From Methanomassiliicoccaceae archaeon (GTDB lineage: Archaea; Thermoplasmatota; Thermoplasmata; Methanomassiliicoccales; Methanomassiliicoccaceae), in assembly GCA_963728405.1 (NCBI GenBank), contig CAVSJV010000004.1, positions 64,001 to 128,000 of the forward strand: DNA of 64,000 nucleotides, read 5' to 3'. Both the position numbers and the translations under genes were made by a program. Position 1 is the first letter of the stretch. Each line of letters begins with the position of its first letter. Of this stretch, positions 1,026-43,314 are shown in pieces. A model generated the notes under the pieces. That model was not told the DNA's origin, did no database searches, and worked only from the letters and a program-made list of their open reading frames with translations.

Positions 1026-1490
1026 ATGGTCGATAAGATGGACAATGTCACCCGCATAGGCATATCGCTCGAGCCCGACCTCCTAAAGGAGTTCGACGAC
1101 CTCGTTACCGGCCGGGGCTACACCAACCGGTCGGAGGCTATACGGGACCTAATCCGCATCGCCCTCACCGAGGACCGTTGGGAGGACAGCGAGGCAGATG
1201 TCGTAGGGACCATTACTTTGGTGTATGATCACGGAAAGGGATGTGTCCAGGACAGACTGATGGAGATACAGCACCATCACCATGCCAACATATCCTCGAC
1301 CATCCACATCCATCTAAGCTTAGAGCAGTGTCTGGAGGTGCTCATCGTTTGGGGCGTGGTCAAGGAGGTCAAGCACCTTGCCGACGAGATCATCAGCATC
1401 AACGGCGTTTCGTTCGGCAAACTGACCATGACCTCGGGCTCTATGGACCGTGTGGGCGAGCGAGGGGCAAAGCACCCGCACGAACACTAA
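1026..1490 (+). CDS. nikR: Nickel-responsive transcriptional regulator NikR
   Basis: RHH N-terminus (RIGISL...NRSEAIRDLIR) and the QHHHH..STIHIHL..CLE nickel site. Confidence 0.95.
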   Translation: MVDKMDNVTRIGISLEPDLLKEFDDLVTGRGYTNRSEAIRDLIRIALTEDRWEDSEADVVGTITLVYDHGKGCVQDRLMEIQHHHHANISSTIHIHLSLEQCLEVLIVWGVVKEVKHLADEIISINGVSFGKLTMTSGSMDRVGERGAKHPHEH

Positions 1491-1567
1491 GCCAGCTATT
1501 CCTTTTTCGACCCATTTCGACCCCCCAAGCCATATTTTTTATACTCCGTGTCCTTTGGTCGAGGAGC

Positions 1568-7695: not shown

Positions 7696-8975
<1,280 letters not shown>

Positions 8976-18671: not shown

Positions 18672-21203
18672 ATGGTTTCGGCAAAAAATGCGTCTGTTCA
18701 ACAGAGTGGAGAGTCAGTTCAGGGCTCGATCCAAGATTATGAAAAAATGGGTATCGCCGAAACATTTGCCAAACTATCCAGCAGTGAAAAAGGATTGACA
18801 GACGCGGAGGCCCACGAACGCGTGAAGCGGTTCGGCTACAATGAGCTCTTAGAGAAAAAGGTCAATCCAATACTTAAGTTCCTGAGCTACTTCTGGGGGC
18901 CCATACCCATCATGATCATGATCGCGGTAGTACTGTCCGCGATCATCGGCCACTGGGAGGATTTCTTCATCATCCTGGCGCTGCTGTTCTCGAACGCCAT
19001 CGTCGGTTTTTATCAGGAGAGGAAAGCGGATAACGCCATCGAGCTGCTGAAGCAGAGGCTCGCTCCGGAGGCCCGGGCGTTCCGCGATGGTAAATGGGTC
19101 CAGATACCTGCAAAAGAGCTTGTCCCGGGTGACGTCGTCCGCGTGCGCCTCGGCGACATCGTTCCTGCGGACATAAAGCTCTTCAAAGGCAAGTATCTCG
19201 AGGTGGACCAATCTGCGCTCACCGGCGAGTCGCTGCCAGTGGAGAAGGCCGAGAACGATGTAAGTTATTCCGGCTCGTTGATCAGAAAGGGCGAGATGGA
19301 TGCCATAGTTGTCACAACTGGAATGAACACATACTTCGGAAAAACTACGAAGTTAGTCGGAGAAGCAAAGGCGGCCAGTCACTTCCAGCGCAATGTGGTG
19401 AAGATCGGTGACTACCTGATCGTCATCGACGTCGTCCTGGTCGCTTTGGTCCTCATCACCGCCATCCTGCGCCACCAAAGTCTCTTGGACACTTTACAGT
19501 TCGCCCTGGTCCTCACCATTGCCGCCATCCCGGTGGCGCTGCCCGCGGTGCTCTCGGTGACCATGGCCATAGGGGCGATCGTCCTGGCGAAGAAGGAAGC
19601 GATCGTCAGCAAGCTCGTGGCCATCGAAGAGATGGCGGGCATGGACATCCTTTGCTCGGACAAGACCGGCACCATAACACAGAACAAACTGACCTTGGCC
19701 AAGGTCATTGGTTATGGTGATACCAGCGAAGCGGAGGTCATGCTGAATGCCGCCCTCGCTTCCCGAGCCGAGGACAAGGATCCCATCGATAGTGCCATTC
19801 TCCAGAGCATCGATTCAATGGGTGAAGTTAAGGAACAGGTCAGCAGCTACGAGATCAAAGAGTTCGTTCCGTTCGATCCGGTTATCAAACGCACCGAGGC
19901 TCAGGTCGTAAGCAAGAGTGGGGAGTTTCGCGTGACCAAGGGCGCGCCCCAGATCATTCTAGGCATGGTGGAGAACAAGGAAGACCTTGGCACCCAGGTC
20001 CAGAAAAACGTCCAGGACCTAGCCTCGATGGGATATCGGGCCTTGGGAGTTGCACGCCGAGAAAAGGACGGATGGCGATTACTGGGAGTCATTGGCCTGC
20101 ACGATCCCCCGCGCTCCGATTCTTCTGTAACGATCCGTAAGGCACAGCAGATGGGGCTTGAAGTAAAGATGGTTACTGGAGACCATTCCGCCATCGCCAA
20201 GGAGATCGCCCAAGAGGTCGGTCTGAGCACCGATATCGTACCATCAGAGTCGTTCGTTAACATGCCGGAAAAGCAGGCTGCCGATGTGGTGGAAAAGGCC
20301 GGTGGCTTCGCCGAGGTCTTTCCTGAGCACAAGTACCGAATCGTTCAACTGCTACAGGGAAAGGGTCACATAGTCGGCATGACCGGAGATGGGGTCAACG
20401 ACGCTCCAGCGTTGAAGAAAGCGGATGCCGGGATCGCGGTGGAAGGTGCTACGGACGCCGCCAAGTCGGCCGCGGACATCGTTCTGACCCGTCCCGGCCT
20501 AGGTGTGGTCATCGACGCCATAATCGAAAGCAGGAAGATATTTCAAAGAATGATCAATTACTCGATCTACCGCATATCGGAGACTATCCGGGTGCTATTC
20601 TTCATCACTTTATCCATTCTCGTATTCCAGTTCTACCCCATAACCGCCTTGATGATCGTTCTTCTTGCTCTATTGAACGATCTGCCCATTCTGACCATCG
20701 CCTTCGATAATGTCCTTTACTCTGCAAAACCGGAGAAATGGGACATGCGCACCCTCCTTCTGGTGGCGATGTACCTCGGGATGATCGGCGTGGTCGAGTC
20801 GTTCATCGTCCTCTACATCGGACTGAACGTGTTCCACCTGGACCAGGCATCGCTCCAATCGTTCATCTATCTAAAGCTCTCAGTGGGCGGGCACCTCGTA
20901 CTGTTAGTTGCTCGTACCAAAGGGCATTTTTGGTCAGTGAGGCCAGCACCCCAGTTGCTGTGGGCGATAATCTTGACCCAGACCACTGCCACCCTCCTGG
21001 TGATATTTGGAATATTGCTGCCTCAACTGGGTCTCGTCTACGTCGCGTTCATCTGGGTCGAAGGTCTGCTAGTGTTCATCATCACAGATTTCCTCAAGGT
21101 GGGCCTATACGACATCCTGATCAAGAGAGGAGTGGTGGCACAAGGAATATCCGCTCCGGAGGATGGGGGCACGCCCAAGGGGGAGCCAACCCCCTCCAAG
21201 TGA
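18672..21203 (+). CDS. Plasma-membrane H+-transporting P-type ATPase (P3A), copy 1
   Basis: DQSALTGES, IPVALPAVLSVTMA, CSDKTGT, KGAPQ, MTGDGVNDAP, SRKIFQRM and M6 ALLND motifs. Confidence 0.95.
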   Translation: MVSAKNASVQQSGESVQGSIQDYEKMGIAETFAKLSSSEKGLTDAEAHERVKRFGYNELLEKKVNPILKFLSYFWGPIPIMIMIAVVLSAIIGHWEDFFIILALLFSNAIVGFYQERKADNAIELLKQRLAPEARAFRDGKWVQIPAKELVPGDVVRVRLGDIVPADIKLFKGKYLEVDQSALTGESLPVEKAENDVSYSGSLIRKGEMDAIVVTTGMNTYFGKTTKLVGEAKAASHFQRNVVKIGDYLIVIDVVLVALVLITAILRHQSLLDTLQFALVLTIAAIPVALPAVLSVTMAIGAIVLAKKEAIVSKLVAIEEMAGMDILCSDKTGTITQNKLTLAKVIGYGDTSEAEVMLNAALASRAEDKDPIDSAILQSIDSMGEVKEQVSSYEIKEFVPFDPVIKRTEAQVVSKSGEFRVTKGAPQIILGMVENKEDLGTQVQKNVQDLASMGYRALGVARREKDGWRLLGVIGLHDPPRSDSSVTIRKAQQMGLEVKMVTGDHSAIAKEIAQEVGLSTDIVPSESFVNMPEKQAADVVEKAGGFAEVFPEHKYRIVQLLQGKGHIVGMTGDGVNDAPALKKADAGIAVEGATDAAKSAADIVLTRPGLGVVIDAIIESRKIFQRMINYSIYRISETIRVLFFITLSILVFQFYPITALMIVLLALLNDLPILTIAFDNVLYSAKPEKWDMRTLLLVAMYLGMIGVVESFIVLYIGLNVFHLDQASLQSFIYLKLSVGGHLVLLVARTKGHFWSVRPAPQLLWAIILTQTTATLLVIFGILLPQLGLVYVAFIWVEGLLVFIITDFLKVGLYDILIKRGVVAQGISAPEDGGTPKGEPTPSK
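18910..19063 (+). repeat. 154-bp exact direct repeat, copy A (in H+-ATPase 1)
   Basis: Identical by eye to 41035-41188 (tcatgatcatgatcgcgg...gaagcagaggctcgc). Confidence 0.9.
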
Positions 21204-23007: not shown

Positions 23008-24898
23008 TCACTGAAGGGGTCCGTTTGAATGAGTGTTCGTCCGCTCATTGAGATCATGCTCGACGGCCTTGGCACCTGCAGCGTGCTGTGGATGTATCTT
23101 TCCCGTATGGCCGAAGTGAGCGAAAGAGACCGCAGCATTGATGAGGCCTATATGTGAAAGAGCCAGAGGATAGTTGCCCAGCTGAGCACCATTCGAGGGC
23201 TCGATCTCCTCCGCCAAAAGGCCTAGGGGCCCCATCCTGGCCAGGATGCCCTCATAGATCGTCTGGGCCTCATTCAACCGTCCCGCCCTGATCAGCGCAA
23301 CCACCAACCAGAAATGTACATAGCACAAAGGACCCCTCTTTTCCGCTGACACCTTCCGGAGCGCTTGAATATCGGTAACAGAGACCGTCGATGACCAAAT
23401 GTTTTAAGGTCGCATCGATGGTCGAGACCATCCGGGGATCCTTGCCGTCGATAAAACCAATCGTAGGTAGTATGAGATTGGAGGCATCCAGGGTCTCATC
23501 CTCATAGGACTGCTTGAATGCGCCAAGACTCTCGCTCCATCCTTTTTCGAGCACCTCCGCCTTGATGAGATCTTGCTCATGGCGCCATTTGGTGACATTA
23601 CCGGGAAGGCCGATTTTAAGGGCCATCTCGCTGCCTTGTTCCAAAGCGGACCAAAGCATGGCTTTGCTGTGGACGAAGTGCCTCACTCCCCCGCGCACCT
23701 CCCAGATGCCATTGTCTGGCTCGTGCCAATGGTCGGCCGCCCAATCGAGGATACCTCTGATTTGGGGCCACATGGTATGGGGATCATAACTCCCTATGTG
23801 CCACGCGAAGTGTATTGCACTTATCACCTCACCATAGACATCCAGCTGTTCCTGCTGGTAGGCCGCGTTCCCGATACGCACCGGTCGGGAATCGCGATAA
23901 CCACGCAGGTGATCCAGCGTCGTCTCGGTGGGATTATTTTCATGGATGATCGGATACAATATCCTTATGCCCGTTCCTTCTAATTCCACTGTGTGAACAA
24001 TCCAGTCGAAGAAAGGCTTCGCATAGTCCATGTATCCAGATAGCATCAGGGCATAGAGAGTAAAGGAAGCATCTCGGATCCAATTAAGTCGGTAGTCCCA
24101 ATTTCTTTCACCACCGATCGTCTCAGGAAGTGAGGTCGTGGGGGATGCTATGATCGCCCCCGAAGGATTGTAAGTCATGAGCTTCAAGGTCAGAACGCTG
24201 CGCAGGACTTCTTCCCGGTAAGGCCCGTGGTAGGTACATTTATCAACCCAGTCCTTCCAGAATGATAGGGTCGACCTGAGACCCTCATAGGGTGAGAACT
24301 GGAGCAGCTCAGGATCGTATTGGACCCCTAAGATGAATGAGACCTTTTCGCCAGCGGCCATCCTAACGTCTGCGTAGATCTCCCTGTTCATGTGATCAAT
24401 TCGCCAAGTGCTTGGCGATATCATCTGGTACGGACCGAATATTGCCCGGCTTCCATCGATATCAAAAAGAGGAAGGGAGCGGGCATAATCGGGCCGGGGG
24501 GCGCATCTACAGATTATGTCGGCGGTGCCCTCGGTGCACTCCAAGATCCGAACGAGCCTGCTGGGATGGTATATCGGGGAGGACGGCTTCTCCAGGTCGA
24601 CGTACATGAAGTCCCTAAGAACCACTTTTCCCGTATCACAATTGAATGTGGTCTCTAGGACATTGGTGTGCTCCACATACTTGTGAACGGACTCGCATGC
24701 CAAGGTTGGCCTAATGCTCCAGAACCCCCCCTTATCCACATCGAGTATTCGGGCAAAGAGCGATGGCGAATCGAATCGGGGCAGGCAGAGCCAATCAATG
24801 GAGCCCTGACTGCTGACAAGTGCCGCGGAGTGGCAGTTCCCGATAAGGCCATAATCCTCGATCGGTCGATAGGAAGTCGAAGACAGTTCATCGTTCAC
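23008..24898 (-). CDS. GH15 glycoside hydrolase (trehalase/glucoamylase-like); apparent frameshift near 23313
   Basis: IEDYGLIGNC, CLPRFDSPS, PTTSLPE.IGGERNWDYR, QLDVYGE, GIWEVRG, EGSFVLCTFW, GLLAEE and GNYPLALSH motifs. Confidence 0.9.
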
Positions 24899-25313: not shown

Positions 25314-26301
25314 ATGCGATTGATTTTCACCGAGGTCATGGGCAATCAGGATAAGCTACGAGCGGTGTTCCAGAACGACGATCTGATTATGTTCGACGGT
25401 CCCCTTGATGAGGACGAGCTGATACACGAGGCCGAGGACGCATCCATACTCTCTGTATTCATACGGACCAAGGTAAGTGAGAGGGTGATCAGCCATCTTC
25501 CCAAATTACAGATGATCAACACAAGGAGCGCGGGGTTTGATCATATCTCCGCGAAGTACGCGATGGAGAAGGGGGTAGCCGTCACCCATGTACCCGATTA
25601 TGGTCCCAATGTGGTGGCAGAACACGCTTTCTGCCTGCTCCTGGCCTGCGCTCGGAGCCTCCTAGCAGCGGACCGATCGGTCAAGGAGTTAAAAAAGTTC
25701 GATTTCGAACCGTTCATGGGTATCGAGCTCAAGGGCAAGGTATTGGGAGTGGTTGGAACAGGAAAGATCGGTGCTGAGGTCATTCGGATCGCTCATGGGT
25801 TCGGTATGAAGGTGGTCGCCTTCGACCTTTACAGGAACGAAAGGCTTGCAGGAGAATTCGGGTTCCCTTATCTCTCCCTAGAGAAGCTCTTGGAGGAGAG
25901 TGATTTTGTGACCCTTCACCTGCCTCTCACCCCAAGCACAGAGAATCTGATCGATCGCTCCGCTCTCCAAAGGATGAAGGAAGGCAGTATCCTGATCAAC
26001 ACGGCTCGAGGTAAAATCGTAGATGAAAGGAGCCTCAGAGAAGCTCTGGACAGTGGCCATTTGGCCGCGGCTGGATTGGATGTGATCGACGATGAGTCCC
26101 ATCCGGAGAACGATCCGTTACTGGGCTCGGAAAACGTCGTGCTCACTCCCCATATCGCATTTTACACCAGGGAGTCGATTAGCAGGATGTTCGACGAGTC
26201 CATCCAGACCATTAAAGCATTTAAATCGGGAAAAACGATAAATGGGATCCCCAAAGAGTAACGTGGAAAAGATAAAGATGCATACTCACCCCCAGGATTA
26301 G
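25314..26301 (+). CDS. D-isomer-specific 2-hydroxyacid dehydrogenase (D-lactate dehydrogenase-like)
   Basis: TRSAGFDHI, VPDYG, GTGKIG, NTARG, GLDV and TPHIAFYT motifs. The TAA at 26259 vanishes if TAACGT is read as TACGT, extending the ORF to the TAG at 26301. Confidence 0.88.
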
Positions 26302-26453
26302 GGCAGGTCGATAGCAACTATGGCCGTTCCTAATGGTCTCAATGCGATAATTCTAGATTCGTCTCTTAAACAGACCGATCCAATGCGCCACCGGCCATCG
26401 AAAAGCACAAACTCCTGGTTTTCAAATCAAGTATTGCAGCTTGAGGAAGCGTC

Positions 26454-27418
26454 ATGGGCATAGGGGAGTGGGCGGTCGGAGTGGATCTGGGAGGCACACA
26501 TATCCGGGTGGCCCGGGTGGATACTGATGGAACAGTGCATGGGATAATTGAAGAAAACACCAGGGTGGAAGAGGGACCGAATGGAGTTGAACTTCAAGTG
26601 GTCGGTATGGTCCATAATCTCTGCAGATCGGAGACGGCCCCACCAGTAGGTGTTGGGGTAGGAATAGCTGGTGACATCGATAAGGACAGTGGTGAGATCA
26701 TATTCAGCCCAAACCTGAGGTGGCACAATGTCCCCTTCCGAGCTGATCTCCAGAAGCGTCTAGACATGCCCGTGCTCGCCATCAACGATGTCCGGGCTGC
26801 TACCTGGGGAGAATGGACCCATGGGGCCGGGCGAGGCTTTGATGACATCGTGTGCATGTTCATCGGCACAGGGATCGGAGGGGGCATCGTTAGCGGTGGA
26901 CGGGTGCTCAGCGGTTGTGGCAATTCCGCCGGAGAGATCGGACACATGGTGGTCCAATTGGGCGGGCCAAGATGCACCTGCGGCAATTGGGGTTGCCTGG
27001 AGGCGCTAGCCGGAGGGTGGGCAATAGCCCAGAGGGCACAGGCTGAGGTCAGTGCCCATCCTGCCACCGGTACAATATTGCTAGATATGTCTCCTGATAT
27101 CGACAACATCTCAGCCCGAACGGTTATCGGCGCAGCCCGATCGGGGGATCAAGTTTCCCTTCGACTCGTGGAGCAGGCGACCGACGCCTTATCGCGGGAG
27201 CCGTGAGCCTGGTCAACGCGTTCGGTCCTTGCCGGCTAATTTTGGGAGGAGGAATGGTAGATGGTTTACCTGAATTGGTGGATCATATCGATAAAGGGGT
27301 CCAGGCCCGGGCCATGGAAGCTGCCCGGAGAAGGGTAAAGGTCATACCATCTGAACTGAGATCTCGAGCGGGAGTAGTTGGGGCGGCCACCTATTTTATG
27401 AAAAATATGAGGACATAA
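26454..27418 (+). CDS. glk: ROK family glucokinase; apparent 1-nt deletion near 27189
   Basis: VDLGGT, NDVRAA.WGE, IGTGIGGG, AGEIGH, CTCGNWGCLEA and AGVVGAA motifs. Confidence 0.88.
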
Positions 27419-27542
27419 CAAAAGGAGATCCGGCCCGAGATCACAGTATCCGATCATGGATCGTTAGGATCCAAGGACGCAGGAACATTTTTAAAACACG
27501 CCCTTCCATGATATTTACCAGACAGACACTGGAGAGGATATA

Positions 27543-28592
27543 TTGACCAAGATCGGAATAAATGGGATGGGGCGCATCGGTCGAATAATCGCGCGGCGCT
27601 ATCTGACCGATCCTCCCGACAACATCGAGCTGGTGGCGGCAAATGACCTGTTCTCGCCTGACAACATTGCCTATCTTACCAAATATGACTCCGTTCATGG
27701 AAGGGCCCCATTTGAGGTGGAGGGCGGAACCGACTTCCTCCGGCTTGGGTCGAGCCGGATACAGATGTTCAAAGAAGCGGACCCCGCCAACATTCCCTGG
27801 AGGGATTTGGGAGTGGACATCGTCCTGGAATGCACCGGGGTGTTCCGCGATCGGGAAAAGGCCGCCGGACACCTGGAGGCTGGCGCATCAAAGGTCATCT
27901 TGAGCGCCCCCTCGGACACCGCAGACCTGACCATCGTCCTTGGTGTCAACGACGATAAGTACGATCCCTCCCAGCACCACATCGTCTCCGCCGCTTCCTG
28001 CACCACCAACTCACTGGCTCCAGTGGCCAAGGTATTGAACGACTCTTTCGGCATCGATTACCTGATGGCCACGACCGTCCACGCCTACACTGCCAGCCAA
28101 AAGCTGGTCGACAGCCCCGCCCGGAAGCTGAGAAGGGGCCGGGCGGCCGCGGTGTCCCTTGTCCCCACCACCACGGGGGCAGCCAACGCTACGGTCAAGA
28201 CCATACCTGAACTGAATGGCCGGATGCACGCCGTGGCCATACGCGCTCCGATCCCTGATGGGGCCATAACCGACGTCACCGCCACTTTGAAGCAGGATGT
28301 CACCGAGGAGATGGTCAATAACGCGCTGAAGAGCGCGGCCAATGGAAGGATGAACGGGATCCTTGACTATAGCGAGGATGAGCTGGTGTCGGCTGACATC
28401 ATCACCGACCCTCACTCCTCCATAATCGATGCCGGATCGACCAAGGTCATCGGTGGCCGGACGGTCAAGGTGCTGGCCTGGTACGACAACGAGTACGGAT
28501 TCTCCTGCCGGATGCTTGACCTGGCCTCCCATATCGCCAAGGCGGGCATACCCGGAAAGACCGTTCGGAGGGAACAGCCGGTCCGAGCGTGA
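27543..28592 (+). CDS. gap: Type I (bacterial-type) glyceraldehyde-3-phosphate dehydrogenase
   Basis: GINGMGRIGR, YDSVHG, LECTG, ASCTTN, HAYTASQ, TTGAA and WYDNE motifs. Confidence 0.95.
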   Translation: MTKIGINGMGRIGRIIARRYLTDPPDNIELVAANDLFSPDNIAYLTKYDSVHGRAPFEVEGGTDFLRLGSSRIQMFKEADPANIPWRDLGVDIVLECTGVFRDREKAAGHLEAGASKVILSAPSDTADLTIVLGVNDDKYDPSQHHIVSAASCTTNSLAPVAKVLNDSFGIDYLMATTVHAYTASQKLVDSPARKLRRGRAAAVSLVPTTTGAANATVKTIPELNGRMHAVAIRAPIPDGAITDVTATLKQDVTEEMVNNALKSAANGRMNGILDYSEDELVSADIITDPHSSIIDAGSTKVIGGRTVKVLAWYDNEYGFSCRMLDLASHIAKAGIPGKTVRREQPVRA

Positions 28593-28620
28593 AATTTGTA
28601 TCATGTTATGGAGGATTGAA

Positions 28621-31080
28621 ATGAGACAAGCAACACCACTGGAAGAGAAAGCCGCTGCCCCGACCCCGAGATACATACGTTGCGTTCAGGGAAATCGGCA
28701 TCGAGGACGTGCCCTTGGTCGGGGGCAAGAATGCCTCGCTGGGCGAGATGTACCGGGAGCTCACGAGCAAGGGGGTCAAGATACCAAACGGTTTTACCAT
28801 AACTGCCGAGGGTTATCGGCATCTCCTCTCAACGACAGGGATCAAAGGGCCGATGGAAAAGGTCCTGACCGGAGTGGACAAGGAAAACGTCACGGACCTG
28901 GCAGAACGGGGCAAGAAGGTCCGGGACCTCATTCTGGAGGCCGGGATACCGGATGACCTGTGGGAGGAGGTCAAGGTGGCCTACGACCGCTTGTGCGAAG
29001 AGTATGGTGAACACCGACGTGGCGGTCCGAAGTTCTAGCGCTACGGCGGAGGACCTTCCGACCGCCTCGTTCGCTGGACAGCAGGAAACCTACCTGAACA
29101 TCCGCGGCTATACCGCAGCTGAGGGAGGCGTGCAGCAAATGCTTCGCCTCCCTGTTCACCGACCGGGCCATCTCCTATCGGATCGACAAGGGGTTCGGCC
29201 AGTTCGATGTTGCCCTCTCCATCGGGATCATGAAGATGGTCCGTTCCGACCTGGCTTCCAGCGGAGTGATCTTCACCCTCGACACCGAGACCGGGTTCCG
29301 GGATGTGGTCTTCATCACCGCCGCCTACGGCCTCGGTGAGAACATCGTGCAGGGAGCCGTGAACCCCGATGAATACTATGTCTTCAAGCCCACCTTCCGT
29401 AAGGGTTCCAAGGCCATCATCAGGAAGAAGCTGGGGGAGAAGGAGAATGAAGATGATCTACGGCCGAGGGGGGACCAAGGAACTGACTCGGAACATTGAC
29501 GTCCCCGAGGAGGACCGCCAAAGGTTCTGCTTGACCGATGACGAGATCCTGGAACTAGCCTCCTTCGCCGTCACCATCGAGGATTACTACTCCAAGAAGT
29601 CAGGGCACGACATGCCCATGGACATCGAGTGGGCCAAGGACGGGGAGAGCGGGGAGCTGTTCATCGTCCAGTCGCGGCCGGAAACGGTGCAATCACAGGG
29701 GCCATGGACGTGCTGGAGACCTACATTCTCGAGAATAGAGGGCGCCGTGCTGAGCCGGAGGGACGAGCGTTGGTTCCAAGATCGCGTCGGGAAAGGCCCG
29801 GGTGATCAGAGACATGAGCCGCTGCCCGAATTCCGTCCGGGGGAGATCCTGGTGTCGACAAGACGCACCCGGACTGGGAGCCCGTCATGAAGATCGCCGC
29901 GGCCATCGTGACCAATCTGGGTGGGCGGACCTGCCATGCGGCCATCGTCAGCCGGGAGCTGGGCATCCCCGCCGTGGTGGGTACGGACGATGCCACCCGC
30001 GTGATCCGTGATGGGGACCAGGTCACCGTGAGCTGCGCCGAGGGCGACGATGGATTCGTTTACGAGGGGGCGCTGCCTTTCCGGGTGGAGCGCACCACGC
30101 TCAAGGACCTCAAGCGTCCGAAGACCGCGATGATGATGAATCTGGGCAATCCGGAGGAAGCGTTCTCCCTCTCCTTCATCCCTAACGACGGGGTCGGCCT
30201 CGCCCGTTTGGAGTTCATCATCAGCAGCTACATCCGCGTTCATCCCATGGCCCTGCTTCACCCTGAAAAAGTGGAGGACGCGAAGGATAGGGAAGCCATA
30301 GAACACCTGACCTCGGCCTTCCCCGATAAGAAGGGCTACTTCGTGGAGACGCTGGCCCATGGCATGGCTACCATCGCCGCCGCGTTCTATCCCAAGGACA
30401 TGGTGGTCCGGTTGAGCGATTTCAAGACCAATGAGTATGCCAGTCTTCTGGGCGGGCGCTACTTCGAACCTGACGAGAGCAACCCCATGCTGGGGTTCCG
30501 AGGCGCATCCCGTTACTACTCGGACCGCTACCGGGAAGGCTTCGGCCTAGAATGCCAGGCGGTCAAGATGGTGAGGGAGACAATGGGCCTGACCAACCTC
30601 ATACCCATGATACCGTTCTGCCGGCGGGTGGAGGAGGCAGAGAAGGTCTTGGCGGAGATGGAACGGAACGGATTGAAGCGGGGTGAGCACGGCCTGCAGG
30701 TCTACATCATGTGCGAGATACCCAACAATTTCCTGCTGATCGACGAGTTCAGCCGTTACTTCGATGGGTTCTCCATAGGTTCCAATGATCTCACCCAGTT
30801 GGTCCTGGGCATCGACCGGGACTCCGAAGTACTGGCCTCGGAATTCGACGAGCGAGATCCCGGGGTGATGAAGGCCATGTCCCTAGCAGTACAGGGGGCG
30901 AAGAGGAACGGCAGGCATAGCGGTATCTGCGGCCAGGCCCCCAGCGACTACCCGGAGATAGCTGAGTTCCTGGTCAAGGAGGGCATCGACTCCATCTCGG
31001 TGAACCCAGACACCCTGATGAAGATCACCTTGAAGGTTTCGCAGATGGAGGAGAAGCTCAAGAAAGAGGGACCGAAGTGA
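28621..31080 (+). CDS. ppsA: Phosphoenolpyruvate synthase; multiple frameshifts in the 5' half (possible pseudogene)
   Basis: [66 protein letters not shown] and ICGQAPSD motifs. Confidence 0.9.
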
Positions 31081-31102
31081 TCGGGCTGAGAGCCATGACA
31101 CG

Positions 31103-32054
31103 GTGACGAGGATGATCTATACTCTCGCCCTCAACCCGGCCATCGACCGCACCTTCTGGGTGGATAGGATAGACTTCGAGGAAACTACTCGGGTACAAAA
31201 GGAATGCCGCTACCCCGGAGGGAAGGGCATCGATGTTTCCCGGGTACTGACCAACATGGACATCCCCAATATGGCGCTGGGCTTCGTCGGCGGCTTCGTC
31301 GGGGACGAGCTGGAGTGCCGACTGACCAGCGAGGGCGTACGCACCGACCTCATTCACATCTCTGGAGAGACCCGCACTAACATCATCGTGCATGAAAAAG
31401 ACACGGGTCGCCACATATTGCTCACGGCCAGTGGGCCGGAGATCGCCCCCTATGAACTTGGTGCCCTTTTCAGTAAATTAGAGGGTCTGAGGGACATTTC
31501 GTTATTAGCAATAGGGGGAAGCCTTCCACCGGGGGTCCATCCAGAAGCCTATCGCCGGATTATATGGGCGATGAAAAAGCGGGGCATGGTCACCCTCCTA
31601 GATGCTGACGGCGATGCGTTGAGACTGGGAATACAGGGCGGTCCGACCTATATCAAACCGAACCGGCATGAACTAAGCCAGCTGGTGGGAAGGGAGCTTA
31701 CTGGGCTGGCGGACATCCTGGATGCAGCGGAGGGGGTCCGATCGCAGGGGGTGGAAACCGTACTGGTATCGATGGGGGCCGACGGGATCGTGCTGGTGGG
31801 GGAGGACAGAAGGTACTTGGCCATCCCGCCGAAGGTCGATGCGGTGAACACCGTTGGATTGGGAGATTCTGCCGTGGCCGGCTTCGTCTATGGCATTGCC
31901 ACTGGCCTCGAACCGAAAGAGTGCCTGATCTATGCTACCGCTGCAGGGACCGCTACCGCGTTGAAACCGGGGACCGCCCGGGCCAACAAGAAGGACGGTG
32001 TTGGAAATGGTGCCCAGGATAACGTTCAAAGATCTTTCAAGGAGCAATGGATGA
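31103..32054 (+). CDS. pfkB: PfkB-family 1-phosphofructokinase/6-phosphofructokinase-2-like kinase; apparent frameshift at 31995-31999
   Basis: LNPAID, PGGKGIDVS, GETRTN, GSLPPG, IKPN and NTVGLGDS motifs. The corrected end [21 protein letters not shown] overlaps the aldolase ATG. Confidence 0.88.
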
Positions 32055-32969
32055 TGAACGGAACGAAAGTTGTTGTACCTCTGGACGTTCCCAGAGGAAA
32101 GCGAAAAATGTTTTTGGACAACTACACGGCCCTGACCGGAGGGAAGGGTCGGCTCATGCTGTTCGCCGGGGACCAGAAAGTTGAGCATCTGAACGATGAT
32201 TTCCGGGGTGAAGGCATCGCTCCAGACGATGGGGACCCCGAGCATTTGTTTCGGATCGCCGCCGGTGGCCGGATAGGGGCATTTGCTACCCAGTACGGGC
32301 TGGTGGCACGTTATGCTGCAGACTACCCCAGGGTCCCCTATATCGTAAAGCTCAATTCCAAGACACATCTGGTCAAAACGCTCCAAGCCGAACCGCTCAG
32401 CCAACAATGGATGACCGTCGATCAGGTTGCGGCCCTGAAAGATGAGAACGATATCACTGTGCTAGGGGTGGGGTATACTGTCTACCTGGGCAGCGAGAAC
32501 GAGGCGATCATGCTCCGAGAGGCGGCCCAGATCGTCCACCGGGCGCATCATCATGGCCTCACCGCCATACTGTGGATGTACCCACGGGGAAAGGCCGTCC
32601 CTAACGAGAAGGACCCCCACTGCGATCGCTGGGGCTGCCGGAGTAGCGGCCTGCCTAGGATCTGATTTTGCCAAGGTTAACTACCCCGAGGGGCCGGATG
32701 CTCAGGATCGCTTCCGAGAGGCGGTGCGAGCGGCGGGAAGGACCGGGGTCATATGTTCTGGAGGAGGGCATATGGAGGTGAGATCATTCTTGGAGAGACT
32801 CCATGAGCAGATCGCGGCCGGGGCGGCCGGAAGTGCTACCGGCCGCAACGTACATCAGAAGCCGTTGGACGAGGCGGTACGGTTCTGCAACGCCGTTTAT
32901 GCTATCACCGTCGAAGATGCCTCGGTCGATGAGGCCATGGATCTCTACTGGGGGGACCTGGGAGCTTGA
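32051..32969 (+). CDS. Class I (DhnA-type) fructose-bisphosphate aldolase; apparent frameshift near 32620
   Basis: [36 protein letters not shown] and ATGRNVHQ motifs. Confidence 0.85.
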
Positions 32970-33700
32970 CGAAGCTGGTCCTACTGCGACATGGTCAGAG
33001 CCTGTGGAACGAGGCGGGGCGGTTCACCGGCTGGATCGATGTGGACCTTTCCACCAAAGGTCGGCAGGAGGCCCTGGAGGCGGGCACAAGACTTCGCAAA
33101 GAGGGCATCGCCCTGGACCTTGCCTTCACTTCCGTCCTCAAGAGGGCCATCCGCACGGCATGGATCGTAATGGACGAGATGGACCTCATGTGGATCCCGC
33201 TGTCCCGCTCCTGGCAGTTGAACGAGAGACATTATGGGGCCTTGCAGGGGTTGAGCAAGGAGGACACGGTCAAGGAGCATGGAAAGGCCCAGGTCCATGC
33301 CTGGCGACGAGGGTATGATGTACGTCCACCATCCCTTGACCCGTCAGATCCTAGACATCCTCGGTTCGATCCCCGATACAAGGGACTCCAAGTTGATCTC
33401 CTTCCTTCATCCGAGTCCCTCAAGGACACATTGGACAGGACCCTGCCTTACTGGCAGGAGGAGATATTGCCCCTGGTACGAGACGGCAAGAACGTCCTGG
33501 TGGCGGCCCACGGCAACAGCCTGCGGGCATTGGTCAAGCACCTCGACGACATCAGCGATGATGAGATCACCGAGTTGAACATACCCACTGGAATCCCCCT
33601 GGTCTACGAGATGGTGGACGGCGCAGTAAAAGAACGGCGCTATCTGGCCTCGAAGGGTGAGCTGACCAAGGCTACGGAAAAGGCGGCCCAGGTGCGATGA
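32966..33700 (+). CDS. gpmA: 2,3-bisphosphoglycerate-dependent phosphoglycerate mutase
   Basis: [35 protein letters not shown] and IPTGIP motifs. Confidence 0.95.
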
Positions 33701-33908
33701 GCGGTGTCATATTTTCGCCGGCCTAGACCCTCGCCAGCTCCTTATTCTCCAGAGCATTGACCGCGAGCAGCCACGTCCCGCAAGCCTCTCTAGAAAGGCG
33801 CCGCCACTCGTGTATGCTCAGGGGCGGGGATCCCGGGACCATAGGGTCCCTTGATCGACCGTTCAGCCTTTTTGCCATATCCCTTCCCAAGCCCGGACCG
33901 TCCGGATC

Positions 33909-35585
33909 TCATACGATGACCTCCATTCTTTTTGATAGAGCCTGATCGTTGATCTCCGCTTTGAGCTTCGATAGGGTCCCGAATGCATCTTTATCTAGGT
34001 CAATCCTCAGGACCCTCCTCCCCCGATGTCTCAATGCCGCATAGTCTCCGAGAGAGGATGCACGGATCAATTCTCCAAAGGTATAGTCTGTCTCTGGCAC
34101 ATCCAGATCATCACCGATCTCATCGATGATCTGTAGGAACAAACCCGTATTGGGGCCCCCTTTGTGAAGCTGCCCTGTAGAATGTAAGAATCGGGGCCCA
34201 TATCCCAGAGTGGTAGCAACGCCTAGATCGAATAGGATCTTCCGACGTATCTGTTGCAATTCTTTCGAAATGTGGGCATCGGGTTCGAGATAGGCCTGAA
34301 TAGAGACGTAGTCACCCTGCCTGGCCTGAGACGACCATTTTCTCAACCTATCCTGCAATCCATCTGGATCACCAATGGAGATGGTCTCCACATTTTCAAG
34401 GATGGCTTCCTCCGTTCTGCCGGCGGCCATCATCTTTTTGGCCAGGTCCTTTGCCATTTGCACATCGGGTTGATCGAAAGGATTGATTCCAAGCACTGTG
34501 GCCGCCGAGGCCACCGCAATCTCCCAATTAAGAATTTCCCGGCCTAGGCCTATCTTTTCTTTCAACATTATGCGAACGGTAGGATGTCCAGCCTCCTCTA
34601 GCTCCTTCATCCGGTCCTCGATGTTGTCCTCATCCCCCCGCATGGTCAAACCAATGAAAAAACGGTCCGGTGGATAACTTGCAGGATCGAGCATAGGTTC
34701 GTCAATGATGGGCACAATGCCCTTTCCGCCCTTACCGGTGCTCTCCGCGATCAATTGTTCGATCCATGAAGGAAAACTGCGAACCGACGATGAGGCCAGA
34801 AATGTGACCTTGTCCCTTCCAGAAAGAGCTAGCTCACCCAACGCCGATCCCAGAACAAGGCCATCACTGTGCTCGGGCTTGGCTTGGAACGCATCGTTCT
34901 CACGCATGCTGAACGAGTTGTCAAGTAATTTGTGCACATCGATGCCGATCAACGCTGCCGGCACTAATCCAAACGCCGTCAGTGCAGAATATCGGCCACC
35001 CACGTCGGGTGTGGCCTCAAAGACCCGCCGGAAGCCCCTCTCCACTGCCAACTGGGCCAGGGGAGTTCCTGGATCAGTGATGGCGATGAAGTGACGCCCT
35101 CCATCGATTCCAGTAGATCGCATCTCCTTCCAAAAATACCTGAAGAGCGACAAGGTCTCCAAGGTAGTGCCAGACTTGCTTGAAACGATGAAAAGGGTTT
35201 TGCGGGGATCGATACTTTTTCTCACTTCCTTCACGGCAGCAGGATGGGTGCTGTCAAGAACGGTAAGCGCTGGATACCCCTTCGCGTTTCCAAAAGTTTT
35301 CTGGAATATTTCTGGAGCGAGGCTTGAGCCTCCCATTCCCAATAGGACCAGATCGGTCAAGCCTTCCATTCGTATCTCTTGGGCAAAATTGACAAAATCT
35401 TCGAGCTGGGGGGGCATCGATTCCCCAAGGGATAACCAGCCAAGTCGATTTGTTATCTCCGGGACCGGTTCCGGGAACCACAGAGTGGGGTCCCGCCCCC
35501 ATAACCTTTTGGTGAAATCTATCTTACTCCACTGCTCCAGCCGGGCGTCGACTTTGTTTTCATAAGGGCCTAAGTTCAAGAACAT
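33909..35585 (-). CDS. pgi: Glucose-6-phosphate isomerase (type found as the C-terminal domain of bacterial Tal-Pgi fusions)
   Basis: NRLGWL, GMGGSSL, SKSGTTLET, VGGRYS, EQLIAESTGK, NPFDQPDV and GPRFLHSTGQLHKGG motifs. Confidence 0.9.
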   Translation of the reverse strand: MFLNLGPYENKVDARLEQWSKIDFTKRLWGRDPTLWFPEPVPEITNRLGWLSLGESMPPQLEDFVNFAQEIRMEGLTDLVLLGMGGSSLAPEIFQKTFGNAKGYPALTVLDSTHPAAVKEVRKSIDPRKTLFIVSSKSGTTLETLSLFRYFWKEMRSTGIDGGRHFIAITDPGTPLAQLAVERGFRRVFEATPDVGGRYSALTAFGLVPAALIGIDVHKLLDNSFSMRENDAFQAKPEHSDGLVLGSALGELALSGRDKVTFLASSSVRSFPSWIEQLIAESTGKGGKGIVPIIDEPMLDPASYPPDRFFIGLTMRGDEDNIEDRMKELEEAGHPTVRIMLKEKIGLGREILNWEIAVASAATVLGINPFDQPDVQMAKDLAKKMMAAGRTEEAILENVETISIGDPDGLQDRLRKWSSQARQGDYVSIQAYLEPDAHISKELQQIRRKILFDLGVATTLGYGPRFLHSTGQLHKGGPNTGLFLQIIDEIGDDLDVPETDYTFGELIRASSLGDYAALRHRGRRVLRIDLDKDAFGTLSKLKAEINDQALSKRMEVIV

Positions 35586-40817: not shown

Positions 40818-43314
40818 ATGCCCATTAATGAATCTGATACGGCGAAGCAGGTCCAGGCGGACATCGCGGCCACGAGCACGGCCACACTGTATGAACGGCT
40901 GTCTAGCAGCGAGGGGGGGCTCAGCTCCGATGAGGCTAGGGTGCGCCAGCGGAAGTATGGCTTGAACGCCATCAGTGAGAAGAAGGTAAGCCCCCTCATC
41001 AAATTCCTCCAATACTTCTACGGCCCCATCCCGTTCATGATCATGATCGCGGTAGTACTGTCCGCGATCATCGGCCACTGGGAGGATTTCTTCATCATCC
41101 TGGCGCTGCTGTTCTCGAACGCCATCGTCGGTTTTTATCAGGAGAGGAAAGCGGATAACGCCATCGAGCTGCTGAAGCAGAGGCTCGCCTTGACCGCGAA
41201 GGTGCTTCGGGACGGGAAGTGGGGGATGATCCCCGCACTCGAGCTGGTTCCCGGTGACGTGGTGCGGGTCCGGCTTGGAGACATCGTTCCTGCGGATGTG
41301 AAGCTGATCGAGGGGCAATTTCTCGAGGTCGATCAATCTGCGCTCACCGGCGAGTCGTTGCCGGTTGAGAAGACGTTGAACGATGTGGCCTACTCCGGTT
41401 CCATCGTTCGCAGGGGAGAGATGAACGCCCTGGTGGTGAACACCGGTATCCACACCTATTTCGGCAGGACGACCAAACTGGTGGAGGAGGCCATCAACGT
41501 AAGCCACTTTCAGAGGAACGTGGCGAAGATAGGCAACTACCTGATCCTCATCGTCGCCATCCTGGTGCTGATCGTGTTCGTCGTTGCCCTTCTGCGCCAC
41601 CAAAGCCTCTTAGACACTTTACAGTTCGCGCTGGTGCTCACCATCGCCGGCATCCCAGTGGCGCTGCCCGCGGTCCTATCTGTAACTTTGGCCGTAGGGG
41701 CCGTCATCTTGGCGAAAAAAGAGGCCCTGGTCAGCAAGCTCACCTCCATCGAGGAGCTGGCCGGGATGGACATCCTGTGCAGCGACAAGACCGGGACCAT
41801 CACCAAGAATCAACTATCCGTGGCCCAGATCGTAACCTACGACGTCTCCCAAGCGGACATGCTGCTGGCGGCCGCCCTCGCTTCCCGAGCCGAGGACAAG
41901 GACCCCATCGATAACGCCGTCCTAGAGAAGGCCACAGCCACCTCAGGCGCGGGGGAAAGAACAGTCGATTTTAAGGTTAAGCGTTTCACCCCCTTCGATC
42001 CGGTCATCAAGCGCACCGAAGCTGTTGTGGAGGGCGATGAAGGCGACTTCCAAGTGGCCAAAGGGGCCCCCCAGGTAGCGTTGCAGATGGCAAGGAACAA
42101 GGAGGCGATCCAGGCTCAGGTCAACAAGGGCGTGGAGGAGATGGCCAGATTGGGTTATCGCGCGCTAGGAGTGGTTCGCAACGATGGCGCTGGCTGGAAA
42201 TTTCTAGGGGTCCTGGGGCTCCAGGACCCACCACGGGATGATTCCTCCGAGACAGTCGCGCAGGCGAAACGGATGGGGGTCGATGTCAAGATGGTGACCG
42301 GAGATCATACTGCCATCGCCAAGGAGGTCTCCCGGCAGGTCGGACTGGGAACCAATATCGTGTCCGCAAAGGCACTTCTCGATACGCTGGATCAGCAAGC
42401 GGAGGAAATGATCGAGAACGCGGACGGAATTGCCGAGGTGTTCCCGGAGGCCAAGTTCCGCATCGTGGACCTGCTGCAGAAGAAGGGGCACATAGTCGGC
42501 ATGACCGGAGATGGGGTGAACGATGCGCCCGCCCTTAAGAAGGCCGACGCCGGCATCGCGGTGGAAGGTGCTACCGACGCGGCCAAGTCAGCGGCGGACA
42601 TCGTGCTCACGAGACCGGGTCTGTCGGTCATCATAGACGCCATCATAGAAAGCCGCAAGATCTTCCAGCGCATGATCAACTACTCGATCTACCGCATCTG
42701 CGAGACCATCCGCTTGCTGTTCTTCGTGACCTTGTCCATCATCGTGTTTCAATTCTACCCCATCACCGCGCTGATGATCGTGCTCCTGGCACTGCTCAAC
42801 GACCTGCCGATCCTGACGATCGCATATGACAAACGTGCTCTATTCAGCCAAGCCAGAAAGATGGAATCTCCGGACCGTGCTCATCGTCGCCACGTTCCTG
42901 GGAATGATCGGCGTGGTGGTGTCGTTCTTTACCCTTTACTTGGGCTTGGAGATCTTCAAGCTGGACCAAACATCGATCCAATCGTTCGTCTATCTGAAGC
43001 TATCAGTGGGCGGACACCTGGTCGTTCTGGTCGCCCGCACCAAAGGGCCATTCTGGTCAGTGAAGCCCGCCCGAAGGCTGCTTCTGGCCATCGTTTTAAC
43101 CCAGGCAGTGGCGACCGCCTTAGTACTGTTCGGGATCTTGTTGCCCCAGCTAGCCCTGGCCTACGTGGTGTTCATCTGGGTGGAGATGTTGATCGTGTTC
43201 GTCATCACCGATTTCCTGAAGGTGAGGCTCTATAATTACCTGATCAGAAAGGGGGAAGTGGCCATGGGCATCTCATCCCAGACCGAACTTCCAGGAAGGC
43301 TCAGCAGCAATTAG
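40818..43314 (+). CDS. Plasma-membrane H+-transporting P-type ATPase (P3A), copy 2; apparent +1 frameshift at 42831
   Basis: Same motifs as copy 1. Removing one A from AAACGT restores IAYDNVLYSAKPERW, collinear with copy 1. Confidence 0.93.
41035..41188 (+). repeat. 154-bp exact direct repeat, copy B (in H+-ATPase 2)
   Basis: Identical by eye to 18910-19063. Confidence 0.9.

Follow-up and report, generated by a model that had tools for sequence, protein, structure and literature searches.

On balance, the sequence evidence slightly favours the reading that the genes around gap, pfkB and gpmA form an accessory operon, conserved within a family of Methanomassiliicoccus-type methanogens, that would act as a second, catabolic Embden-Meyerhof (EMP) route beside the native gluconeogenic enzymes. 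The window is the whole stretch of 64,000 nucleotides that was analysed. Pfam and NCBIfam profile searches verified all eight genes named in an earlier sequence-only reading at their positions and orientations, seven of them co-oriented and a PGI gene convergent. The features are the following:

7775-8975, - strand, enolase, split by a frame break (Enolase_N and part of Enolase_C)
23270..24898, - strand, glucoamylase/trehalase-like GH15 gene, pointing away from the dehydrogenase
25314-26261, + strand, D-2-hydroxyacid dehydrogenase (Pfam)
26454-~27403, + strand, ROK kinase, glk (Pfam)
27543-28592, + strand, class I GAPDH, gap (TIGR01534; frame intact)
28621-31080, + strand, PEP synthase, ppsA, the genome's second copy (NF005057)
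31112-32054, + strand, PfkB kinase, pfkB (TIGR03168, TIGR03828)
32051-32969, + strand, DhnA/PRK06852-type class I aldolase (NF005321)
32966-33700, + strand, GpmA (NF010713; frame intact)
35585-33909, - strand, PGI, convergent on gpmA (PF00342; frame intact)
49689-50726, - strand, native archaeal bifunctional PGI/PMI (TIGR02128)

The overlaps or very short gaps described within gap-ppsA-pfkB-aldolase-gpmA were also found: the gap-pps and pps-pfkB spacers measure 28 nt and 31 nt, and pfkB/aldolase and aldolase/gpmA each overlap by 4 nt. The host is archaeal, as had been proposed, with an archaeal SSU rRNA (1168 bits) and mcrA, and its relatives carry the label Methanomassiliicoccus.

The dehydrogenase matches PF02826 (198 bits) and PF00389 (103 bits) and stays below cut-off on all NCBIfam equivalogs, the best being PGDH (241.6 bits, cut-off 454) and glyoxylate reductase (237.5 bits, cut-off 455); no D-LDH model of NCBIfam was passed above cut-off. 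Its best solved chains, 11 bits apart, are 3KB6, deposited as 'D-lactate dehydrogenase' (215 bits), and the PGDH 1WWK (204 bits), and a full-length SerA and a gene resembling glyoxylate reductase are encoded separately in the genome. A D-lactate end step carried out by this adjacent enzyme is plausible. The ROK glucokinase matches PF00480 (176 bits), and gap reaches 403.5 bits on TIGR01534 (cut-off 367.2) with 81% identity to the ortholog of the relative G008. The C-terminal ORF of ppsA alone scores 607 bits on NF005057 (cut-off 598), and the intact G008 ortholog 1173.5 bits. PfkB belongs to the 1-PFK/Pfk-2/LacC subfamily (TIGR03168, 304 bits, cut-off 216). It scores 297.7 bits on the 1-phosphofructokinase model TIGR03828, the two recorded scores (297.7 and 294.1) exceeding the cut-off of 292 by about 2-6 bits; the Pfk-2 model gave 168 and 176 bits, below its cut-off of 353. 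Among solved chains it reaches 167 bits with fructose-1-phosphate kinases versus 142 bits with Pfk-2. The aldolase resembles the PRK06852/archaeal-type class I FBP aldolases: it matches NF005321 in two pieces (302.5 and 160.4 bits), the intact G008 ortholog reaches 514.2 bits (cut-off 420), and against solved chains this ortholog scores best with 4MOZ 'fructose-bisphosphate aldolase' (358 bits) and reaches 114 bits with Thermoproteus tenax 1OJX. Unlike these solved enzymes the window copy is frame-broken, and its FBP activity is predicted. GpmA scores 360 bits on NF010713 (cut-off 305) and 341 bits on TIGR01258. The PGI is of the long type (PF00342, 77.7 bits), aligns with positions 358-946 of NF007080, its PGI half, at 649.8 bits where the cut-off is 712, and has orthologs in 6/18 family genomes. 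The GH15 gene, one of five genomic paralogs, reaches 341 bits on the archaeal trehalase model TreH1 (NF041084), below the cut-off of 820, and is not a neighbour of the cassette in G008.

The proposal that the cassette duplicates native EMP steps is supported: it makes up a second, probably co-transcribed EMP set next to an archaeal one. We located class II GAPDH (486 bits) beside PGK, FBP aldolase/phosphatase (535 bits) beside TPI, and aPGM, so that the tpi, pgk and native class II gap genes that were sought are all in the genome; the PGI/PMI expected at 49689 (TIGR02128, 232.2 bits, cut-off 213.9) and the host enolase do lie in the window. The other ppsA of the genome is 40% identical to the cassette copy. 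The cassette had been said to lack pgk, which is true locally; in relatives, however, a second, bacterial-type PGK follows the cassette, within 100 nt of gpmA in six genomes, and it occurs in 12/12 gap-positive and 0/6 gap-negative family genomes. Its ortholog in the present genome stands on another contig (C5:119326-120497) beside a GH65/trehalose-phosphatase gene. Pyruvate kinase, which had been noted as lacking from the cassette, was not found anywhere in this 93.75% complete genome, and nor were ADP-PFK/GK, glycogen phosphorylase or AFOR/GAPOR. The sugar-supply genes comprise five GH15 paralogs, one GH65, OtsA and two ROK kinases.

The gap-pfkB-aldolase order is kept in all five family loci examined, three of which have ppsA, four gpmA and three the dehydrogenase, and the full set is likewise present in one public MAG. 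The arrangement is non-random, because the order is identical in these 5/5 loci and the MAG. Class I gap was found in 12/18 family genomes and pfkB in 9/15, with none in 45 genomes from the remainder of the order; the operon is absent from 6/18 genomes of the family and from the order's other families. G001 and G015 carry a short variant without ppsA, which is therefore a separable addition. The dehydrogenase tracks class I GAPDH (16/18 gap-positive and 0/12 gap-negative relatives, counts drawn from kin and so not independent), being missing from two gap-positive genomes, G001 and G002; it also lies downstream of gap in a bacterial MAG. The glk and GH15 genes adjoin the cassette in the present genome alone.

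In the catabolic route that we propose, GH15 (and GH65) enzymes would release glucose from trehalose or alpha-glucan, the ROK kinase would convert it to glucose-6-phosphate and PGI to fructose-6-phosphate, which PfkB, with a substrate that we infer, would phosphorylate to fructose-1,6-bisphosphate. The class I aldolase would then yield trioses, class I NAD-GAPDH and the cassette-type PGK 3-phosphoglycerate, and GpmA followed by host enolase PEP. The cassette PEP synthase may run in reverse to pyruvate, standing in for the missing pyruvate kinase, and NADH would be re-oxidised by the adjacent dehydrogenase with a 2-oxoacid, possibly pyruvate, as acceptor. It is possible, though doubtful, that the genes form instead a second amphibolic or gluconeogenic trunk, in which PEP synthase makes PEP from pyruvate, NAD-GAPDH, GpmA, PGK and aldolase work toward hexose in conditions that do not suit the native NADP-linked set, and PfkB acts on fructose-1-phosphate or tagatose-6-phosphate rather than fructose-6-phosphate. 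PfkB passes the 1-phosphofructokinase cut-off, NCBI records of relatives give it that name, ppsA is separable, and all remaining cassette steps are reversible, which counts for this alternative. However, a complete gluconeogenic set is already present, with the one-way FBP aldolase/phosphatase and a further ppsA among its members, and glucose and fructose-6-phosphate come from the neighbouring GH15, ROK kinase and PGI. The sole irreversible core step is that of a PFK-B sugar-phosphate subfamily kinase, and a catabolic direction is therefore indicated.

PEP synthase itself bears on both readings. According to the available text of PMC8100219 and PMC12525153, it is gluconeogenic in most organisms. 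The available text of PMC8100219 adds that the enzyme strongly favours this direction, and that its use as the glycolytic PEP-to-pyruvate enzyme in Thermococcus kodakarensis is tied to ADP-dependent kinases, which supply AMP for it, alongside GAPOR. The modified EMP pathway of that organism resembles the catabolic route proposed here in the link between a PEP synthase gene and genes of glycolysis and in a pyruvate kinase that is absent or secondary (PMC8100219, in the text available). It differs in that the kinases here belong to the ATP-dependent ROK and PfkB families, a point against catabolic use, while GAP oxidation would use NAD-GAPDH and PGK, and the reverse action of PEP synthase is predicted.

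The sequence-only reading had taken the cassette for a single bacterial glucose-to-lactate import that plugs into host TPI, PGK and enolase, which is improbable. Its parts were compared with a control panel of 14 genomes, four of them archaeal, including the methanogens M. jannaschii and M. acetivorans. The bacterial affinity claimed for gpmA and glk was recovered, and together with the extra PGK these genes look bacterial. gpmA exceeds its cut-off in five bacterial and 0/4 archaeal controls, its named matches outside the family are bacterial (6/6), and in the tree the family clade is nested within bacterial rows (supports 88-94). glk is private to the present genome at that position, being absent from the cassettes of relatives, where it has no ortholog and its best relatives are just 46-47% identical; its organism-named matches are all bacterial (7/7), and the non-self matches in the list show 50-59% identity. 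The extra PGK matches the bacterial PGK/TPI model only. A single GAPDH clade of the family and the order's other families was rejected (lnL difference 115.5, p-AU 5e-144, for a group chosen after the tree was seen), and the deposited name of the dehydrogenase's best solved relative also agrees with an import, whereas the D-LDH family models were not reached. Against a bacterial origin of the whole, the class I GAPDH, claimed as a bacterial part, belongs to a clade in which archaeal rows outnumber bacterial ones by 21 to two and which consists mostly of archaea from the host's own phylum; of the 14 controls, only the two methanogens have an aldolase above the NF005321 cut-off; and the named neighbours of pfkB are mixed (Ca. 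Syntrophoarchaeum, Nitrospirota, 'bacterium'). The operon was absent from every bacterial locus among the 79 loci fetched. No island marks were seen at the cassette, where GC content (0.58-0.605) lies within the contig range of the genome (0.51-0.61) and neither tRNA genes nor flanking repeats occur. The core gap-(ppsA)-pfkB-aldolase-gpmA is neither private nor a recent import, because it is syntenic and intact in 5/5 family loci and one public MAG. Its ancestry is a mosaic: the module was assembled from genes of differing origin and not as one bacterial block.

The NF005321 aldolase family also contains methanogen enzymes serving other purposes, which counts against the catabolic reading, and has been linked to the 6-deoxy-5-ketofructose-phosphate pathway to aromatic amino acids. 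That aldolase and kinase serve such biosynthesis here, as in Methanocaldococcus, is very unlikely; the restriction of the family to the two methanogen controls favours it, but the other enzymes of the operon belong to the glycolytic trunk, a further gene of the DhnA family lies at C5:394747-395274, and the operon, missing from many relatives, is therefore a poor fit to an essential biosynthetic role.

Four of the eight cassette genes (glk, ppsA, pfkB and the aldolase) have broken frames, which had gone unnoticed, whereas the frames are intact in family relatives. In glk a single shift near 27190 leaves the C-terminal 71 residues in another frame (27188-27400), and ppsA, mapped against three intact orthologs, carries nine indels that shift the frame, all of them within 28683-29856. 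A single shift near 31990 puts the last ~20 residues of pfkB in a different frame and creates a spurious 520-aa pfkB-aldolase ORF, the true stop overlapping the aldolase start, and the aldolase has a single shift at about 32620-32650. This makes 12 breaks in about 7 kb, nine of which fall in 1.2 kb of ppsA, a density about forty-fold above the genome average of ~1 detectable frame change per 5.3 kb; no other sampled gene has more than two. Genome-wide, 30 out of 158 conserved orthologs were broken, with 35 frame changes over 62,104 aligned residues, and some of the broken proteins are 95% identical to their G008 counterparts. Breaks also occur in the housekeeping genes enolase, topA, TPI, two PGKs and OtsA. 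The enolase ORF 8202-8975 covers Enolase_N and just 112/296 positions of Enolase_C, beside ORF 7775-8251 on the same strand. Compared with G008, the broken half of ppsA differs at codon positions 1/2/3 by 0.118/0.089/0.379 and the intact G007 ppsA by 0.113/0.089/0.407, the same third-position excess with positions 1 and 2 not raised. The 12 breaks are assembly (sequencing) errors, because 30/158 genes are broken genome-wide and ppsA is under full purifying selection; we give hardly any credence to decay in this strain, with the four genes as pseudogenes, for all the clustering in ppsA and its dispensability in some relatives.

A close known system is the sugar-phosphate metabolism of Haloarchaea, for which PMC12525153 cites Tästensen and Schönheit (2018). 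In Haloferax volcanii, an archaeon related to methanogens, as described in the available text of PMC12525153, bacterial-type NAD-GAPDH, dPGM, PGI, ATP-glucokinase and 1-PFK stand beside an archaeal anabolic GAPDH, which resembles the present case in the retained class II GAPDH and the added class I GAPDH, cofactor-dependent PGM, ROK-type glucokinase and PfkB kinase, some of them bacterial-like. Within the sample of that review the pattern is stated to be confined to Haloarchaea, and its available text has 0 occurrences of Methanomassiliicoccales. In contrast to Haloarchaea, the host here is a methyl-reducing methanogen and strict anaerobe, its genes lie in a single operon, accessory within the family, its aldolase comes from a class I family found in methanogens and not from class II, pyruvate kinase was not found and the GAPDH clade is mostly archaeal.

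Methanococcus and Methanosarcina mobilise a carbohydrate store in starvation via an EMP variant (available text of PMC9723798 and PMC12525153), a likeness to the catabolic operon proposed here. ADP-PFK/GK, glycogen phosphorylase, pyruvate kinase and a GAPOR-type gene of the AFOR family are all present in the controls M. jannaschii and M. acetivorans, but none of them was found in the present genome; PfkB, ROK kinases, GH15/GH65 hydrolases and OtsA occur instead, and these appear to point to trehalose or hydrolytic glucan use. The operon of the Methanomassiliicoccus-type methanogens would probably serve in mobilising stored trehalose or glucan.

Profile searches recovered the eight glycolytic genes that the sequence-only reading had described as a cassette, in the order and orientation it had given, and an archaeal SSU rRNA and mcrA in the genome holding the window (G000; 2.73 Mb, 18 contigs, 93.75% complete) bore out that the host is an archaeon. 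Proteins of its close relatives carry the NCBI label Methanomassiliicoccus sp. The eight genes and the gene upstream of them are listed below.

Genes of the cassette and its upstream neighbour, in window coordinates
23270-24898, divergent, upstream of the dehydrogenase gene: GH15 glucoamylase/trehalase-like gene
25314-26261, +: D-2-hydroxyacid dehydrogenase (PF00389 103.5 bits and PF02826 198.4 bits, both over cut-off)
26454-about 27403, +: ROK kinase, glk (TIGR00744 165.6 bits for a 250-aa piece alone; frame break)
27543-28592, +: class I GAPDH, gap (TIGR01534 403.5 bits, cut-off 367.2)
28621-31080, +: PEP synthase, ppsA (C-terminal ORF over the NF005057 cut-off)
31112-32054, +: PfkB-family kinase, pfkB (TIGR03828 297.7 bits, cut-off 292)
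32051-32969, +: class I aldolase, PRK06852 family (NF005321, two pieces of 302.5 and 160.4 bits)
32966-33700, +: GpmA (NF010713 360.1 bits, cut-off 305)
35585-33909, -: PGI, long type, convergent

Of the five genes from gap to gpmA, gap and ppsA are 28 nt apart and ppsA and pfkB 31 nt, and each of the next two junctions is a 4-nt overlap; in the reference relative G008 the DNA read gives a gap/ppsA spacer of about 20-28 nt. The GAPDH scored 111.5 bits on PF00044, 189 bits on PF02800 and only 20.9 bits on the type II model, and its translation contains SAASCTTNSLAP, in which the catalytic cysteine motif of class I GAPDH, S-C-T-T-N, is present. GpmA also passed TIGR01258 (341.1 bits vs 81.7) and reached only 36 bits on the archaeal dPGM model NF038349. 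The N-terminal half of ppsA is fragmented across frames; its C-terminal ORF scored 607.4 bits on NF005057 and the intact G008 ortholog 1173.5 bits (cut-off 598). The G008 aldolase reached 514.2 bits on NF005321 (cut-off 420). The glk score of 165.6 bits on TIGR00744, under the cut-off of 260.35, belongs to the 250-aa piece alone; the remaining 71 residues lie in another frame. PfkB marginally passed the 1-phosphofructokinase model TIGR03828, by 2-6 bits (297.7 bits for the window, 294.1 for G008; cut-off 292), and stayed under the cut-off of the Pfk-2 model NF007632 (168.3 and 176.1 bits; cut-off 353). Its solved relatives were nearly equal (F1P kinases 167, tagatose-6-P kinase 153 and Pfk-2 142 bits), and JGI records of relatives name the ortholog 6-phosphofructokinase 2. 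PfkB could still have 6-phosphofructokinase activity despite its low Pfk-2 score.

The window also holds a polyphosphate kinase 2 gene (15995-16906) and a response-regulator receiver-DUF835 fusion (9040-10011). Two paralogous plasma-membrane-type proton-efflux P-type ATPases (18672-21203 and 40818-43299; TIGR01647 1037 and 925 bits) are separated by 20 kb, with TrkA/TrkH K+ uptake, a Na+/H+ exchanger, a ClC channel and an MscS-like channel around and between them. This is an ion-homeostasis neighbourhood.

The reading frame is interrupted in four of the eight cassette genes (glk, ppsA, pfkB and the aldolase gene). Single shifts sever the last 71 residues of glk, split the aldolase and displace the last ~20 residues of PfkB, where the wrong frame continues into the aldolase gene and produces a spurious 520-aa ORF. 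Compared with three intact orthologs, ppsA carries nine frame-shifting indels within 28683-29856, crowded into 1.2 kb against a genome rate of about one frame change per 5.3 kb. The frame survey started from 269 ORFs (200 aa or longer) in twenty 20-kb samples of G008, a complete relative, and counted tblastn frame changes in the 158 orthologs found in G000 at 55% identity or more. Frame changes were found in 30 of these (35 changes over 62,104 aligned residues), and the broken orthologs include proteins 95% identical to their G008 counterparts. An alternative count of non-3n indels by pairwise DNA alignment was dropped because divergent stretches made it too noisy: 168 kb gave 338 'events', of which many compensated each other within 10 nt. 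Elsewhere in G000 the frames of TPI, two PGKs, OtsA and a GH65 gene are broken, as are those of four other genes of the window.

Other frame-broken genes of the window
1241-4025: topA
7775-8975: enolase
16971-18253: amino acid permease
40818-43299: P-type ATPase

In the relatives the cassette frames are open, and the G008 ppsA, aldolase and pfkB products all exceed curated cut-offs. Differences from G008 at codon positions 1/2/3 amount to 0.118/0.089/0.379 in the broken half of ppsA and to 0.113/0.089/0.407 in the intact ppsA of the related genome G007, which shows full purifying selection on the broken half, without neutral decay. From this selection and the genome-wide frame changes we conclude that the breaks are probably assembly errors. 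Roughly a fifth of conserved genes are broken in this assembly, and pseudogene, fusion and split-gene calls on G000, such as the 520-aa 'PfkB-aldolase', are suspect.

The operon is an accessory feature of the family. Class I gap is present in 12 of the 18 family genomes (7 of the 10 of the genus), gpmA in 8 of 15, and pfkB in 9 of 15 and in none of the 45 genomes of the order's six other families. The order gap-pfkB-aldolase is constant in all five family loci examined; gpmA comes next in four, three (G007, G008 and G014) have ppsA between gap and pfkB, and the dehydrogenase gene precedes gap in three. A public MAG (L049) carries the complete dehydrogenase-gap-ppsA-pfkB-aldolase-gpmA series. 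A long PGI gene is present in 6 of 18 family genomes, among them those of all three examined loci that bear ppsA. Among the loci compared, ROK and GH15 genes adjoin the cassette in G000 only.

Outside the family, none of 23 archaeal loci (20 phylum-level, two order-level and the locus on contig C2 of G000 itself) had another cassette gene near gap. The operon was likewise found in none of 79 bacterial loci among the matches listed, which come from a GAPDH scan (at least 600 stretches, one family member among the matches listed) and are not an unbiased bacterial sample. The only multi-gene cassette-like bacterial locus among the matches listed is that of a public Dehalococcoidia MAG (L067), where a long-type PGI (44% identity), gpmA (59%), a ROK kinase (35%) and class I gap (51%) lie within 10 kb in an order unlike that of the cassette. 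The other families of the order, as sampled, yielded no aldolase over the NF005321 cut-off, and weak matches below it in two of them (15 of 19 in f7, 4 of 4 in f3). Class I GAPDH and the dehydrogenase occur in families f2, f4 and f6 without gpmA, and gpmA occurs in f3, f5 and f7 without either, so that their distributions across these families are complementary.

A divergent class I GAPDH on contig C2 of G000 was rejected as a native paralog, since it lies in a 45-kb contig end (C2:1-45000) of 66-73% GC, against 0.51-0.61 for whole contigs. In this contig end (locus L019, C2:20000-33000) the GAPDH gene precedes that of an MFS transporter, in an ArsJ-like pairing, and a homolog of bacterial DNA polymerase III delta' is also present; a chimeric join or bacterial contamination is the probable origin of the end.

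The sequence-only reading had proposed that the cassette as a whole was imported from bacteria. Some genes fit such an origin, namely gpmA, glk and an extra PGK. The gpmA model matched five bacterial controls and no archaeal ones, all six named matches in the part of the list beyond the family (56-71% identity) were bacterial, and the tree placed the family clade among bacterial rows, away from the other families of the order, as expected under import, with supports of only 88-94. For glk, the best identity among 5.8 billion proteins was at most 59% once the query's own entry was excluded, and all seven named matches were bacterial. The GAPDH and the aldolase do not fit. In the GAPDH tree (64 rows) the family clade (11 rows, support 99) falls inside a support-100 clade on a long stem (0.61), whose other members are ten additional copies belonging to a different family of the phylum and two MAGs of bacteria (Thermodesulfobacteriota and Nitrospirota, one each), a placement that does not uphold the bacterial ancestry proposed for gap. 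The class I GAPDHs of the order's other families fall elsewhere; constraining them with those of the family, a group chosen after the tree was seen, changed the likelihood by -115.5 lnL units (p-AU 5e-144). Carriers of class I GAPDH are common in the phylum (96 of 401 genomes). Of 14 controls, only M. jannaschii and M. acetivorans passed the aldolase model, as did 29 of 201 phylum genomes. Named neighbours of pfkB (54-58% identity) are mixed, comprising Ca. Syntrophoarchaeum, Nitrospirota, 'bacterium' and 'Euryarchaeota'. A search of protein representatives clustered at 50%, whose best full-length single-domain match was 55% identical, was uninformative on donors. The GC content of the cassette (0.58-0.605) is inside the range of G000 contigs (0.51-0.61), no tRNA genes were found in the window, and flanking repeats were only at chance level. 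With these mosaic affinities, the synteny within the family and the lack of island signatures, acquisition of one recent bacterial cassette is unsupported; what the gene affinities support is an operon that would have been put together piecemeal, partly from bacterial genes.

The native class II gap, tpi and pgk that the sequence-only reading presumed in the host were all located, and the native gluconeogenic set of G000 is complete: class II GAPDH beside PGK, FBP aldolase/phosphatase, a one-way enzyme, beside TPI, aPGM, PGI/PMI, enolase and a second ppsA, 40% identical to that of the cassette. Pyruvate kinase, ADP-PFK/GK, glycogen phosphorylase and AFOR/GAPOR were not found in G000 (93.75% complete). 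Given this full gluconeogenic set and the catabolic alternatives not found, the operon would fill the steps absent for the catabolic direction, with a PFK candidate, a cleaving aldolase and an NAD-type GAPDH with its own PGK, and its PEP synthase would perhaps convert PEP to pyruvate.

This second PGK belongs to the cassette module: each of the 12 gap-positive family genomes carries it, the six gap-negative ones do not, and it lies less than 100 nt from gpmA in six genomes. The copies scored, the cassette-type PGK of relatives and a third PGK of G000, matched solely the bacterial PGK/TPI model.

PGK genes of G000
C17:71559-72716: archaeal PGK adjoining class II GAPDH
C5:119326-120497: ortholog of the cassette-type PGK (52-64% identical over three HSPs)
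C5:420221-421144: third PGK, with a close match only in G003 (79%) among the relatives searched

Directly upstream of the cassette-type PGK, a frame-split gene (C5:120598-123863; L158:4598-7863, -) encodes a trehalose-phosphatase domain fused to a GH65 phosphorylase, and this position points to a tie between trehalose metabolism and the module. G000 also has OtsA and two ROK kinases. Its five GH15 (glucoamylase/trehalase-like) paralogs lie at C4:1761-3359, window 23270-24898, C5:223588-225183, C5:334173-335774 and C13:172990-174577, the others being 50-62% identical to the window copy. We infer that the module mobilises trehalose or glucan.

The dehydrogenase passed no NCBIfam equivalog cut-off, including those of the D-lactate dehydrogenase models NF006374 (148.1 bits, cut-off 356), NF009127 (120.8, 579) and VanH (172.4, 540). 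Its best solved relatives are 3KB6, a chain deposited as D-LDH, at 215 bits, and a PGDH at 204 bits. A canonical SerA (659 bits, cut-off 454) and a glyoxylate-reductase-like protein are encoded by other genes of G000, which makes the dehydrogenase a third enzyme. Among the relatives, 16 of 18 with class I gap carry it and 0 of 12 without class I gap do, and the pattern extends to families in which the two genes lie far from each other; since the genomes are kin, the count overstates the association. Among the matches listed, one bacterial MAG (L050) also has a dehydrogenase gene 3' of gap. This pattern fits a putative role as NADH-recycling partner of the GAPDH.

The weak steps of the catabolic reading are the substrate of PfkB, the reverse PEP synthase and the final step from pyruvate. 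Free-living Methanomassiliicoccus species are known as obligate H2-dependent methyl reducers. It is conceivable, though we consider it rather improbable, that these species make ATP by substrate-level phosphorylation through the NAD-linked EMP route of the operon, fermenting stored trehalose or glucan, or scavenged glucose, by way of pyruvate to D-lactate or another D-2-hydroxyacid, with a dedicated PEP synthase paralog in reverse replacing pyruvate kinase; they would then be the second archaeal lineage after Haloarchaea with a largely non-native glycolysis.

The closest parallel to the operon is the bacterial-type glycolytic set of Haloarchaea, with separate catabolic and anabolic GAPDHs. A 2025 review describes the bacterial-type sugar-phosphate enzyme set in archaea as specific to Haloarchaea (PMC12525153), and Methanomassiliicoccales are absent from its text; the operon would qualify that claim. 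According to another paper, the PEP synthase of Thermococcus runs in the reverse, glycolytic direction, with AMP coming from ADP-dependent kinases (PMC8100219); unlike in Thermococcus, the kinases of G000 are of the ATP-dependent ROK and PfkB families. We found no description of the operon in the literature searched, supplements being outside its scope, and the gene-presence tables of PMC12525153 and PMC9723798 may list its genes.

The enzymes of the operon are all from known, routinely annotated families; what is new is the operon itself, its accessory spread in a methanogen family and its mix of enzymes. Methanomassiliicoccales are regarded as methanogens whose energy metabolism is pared down. 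A conserved parallel glycolytic operon would give the large-genome Methanomassiliicoccales a starvation or osmolyte-turnover metabolism.
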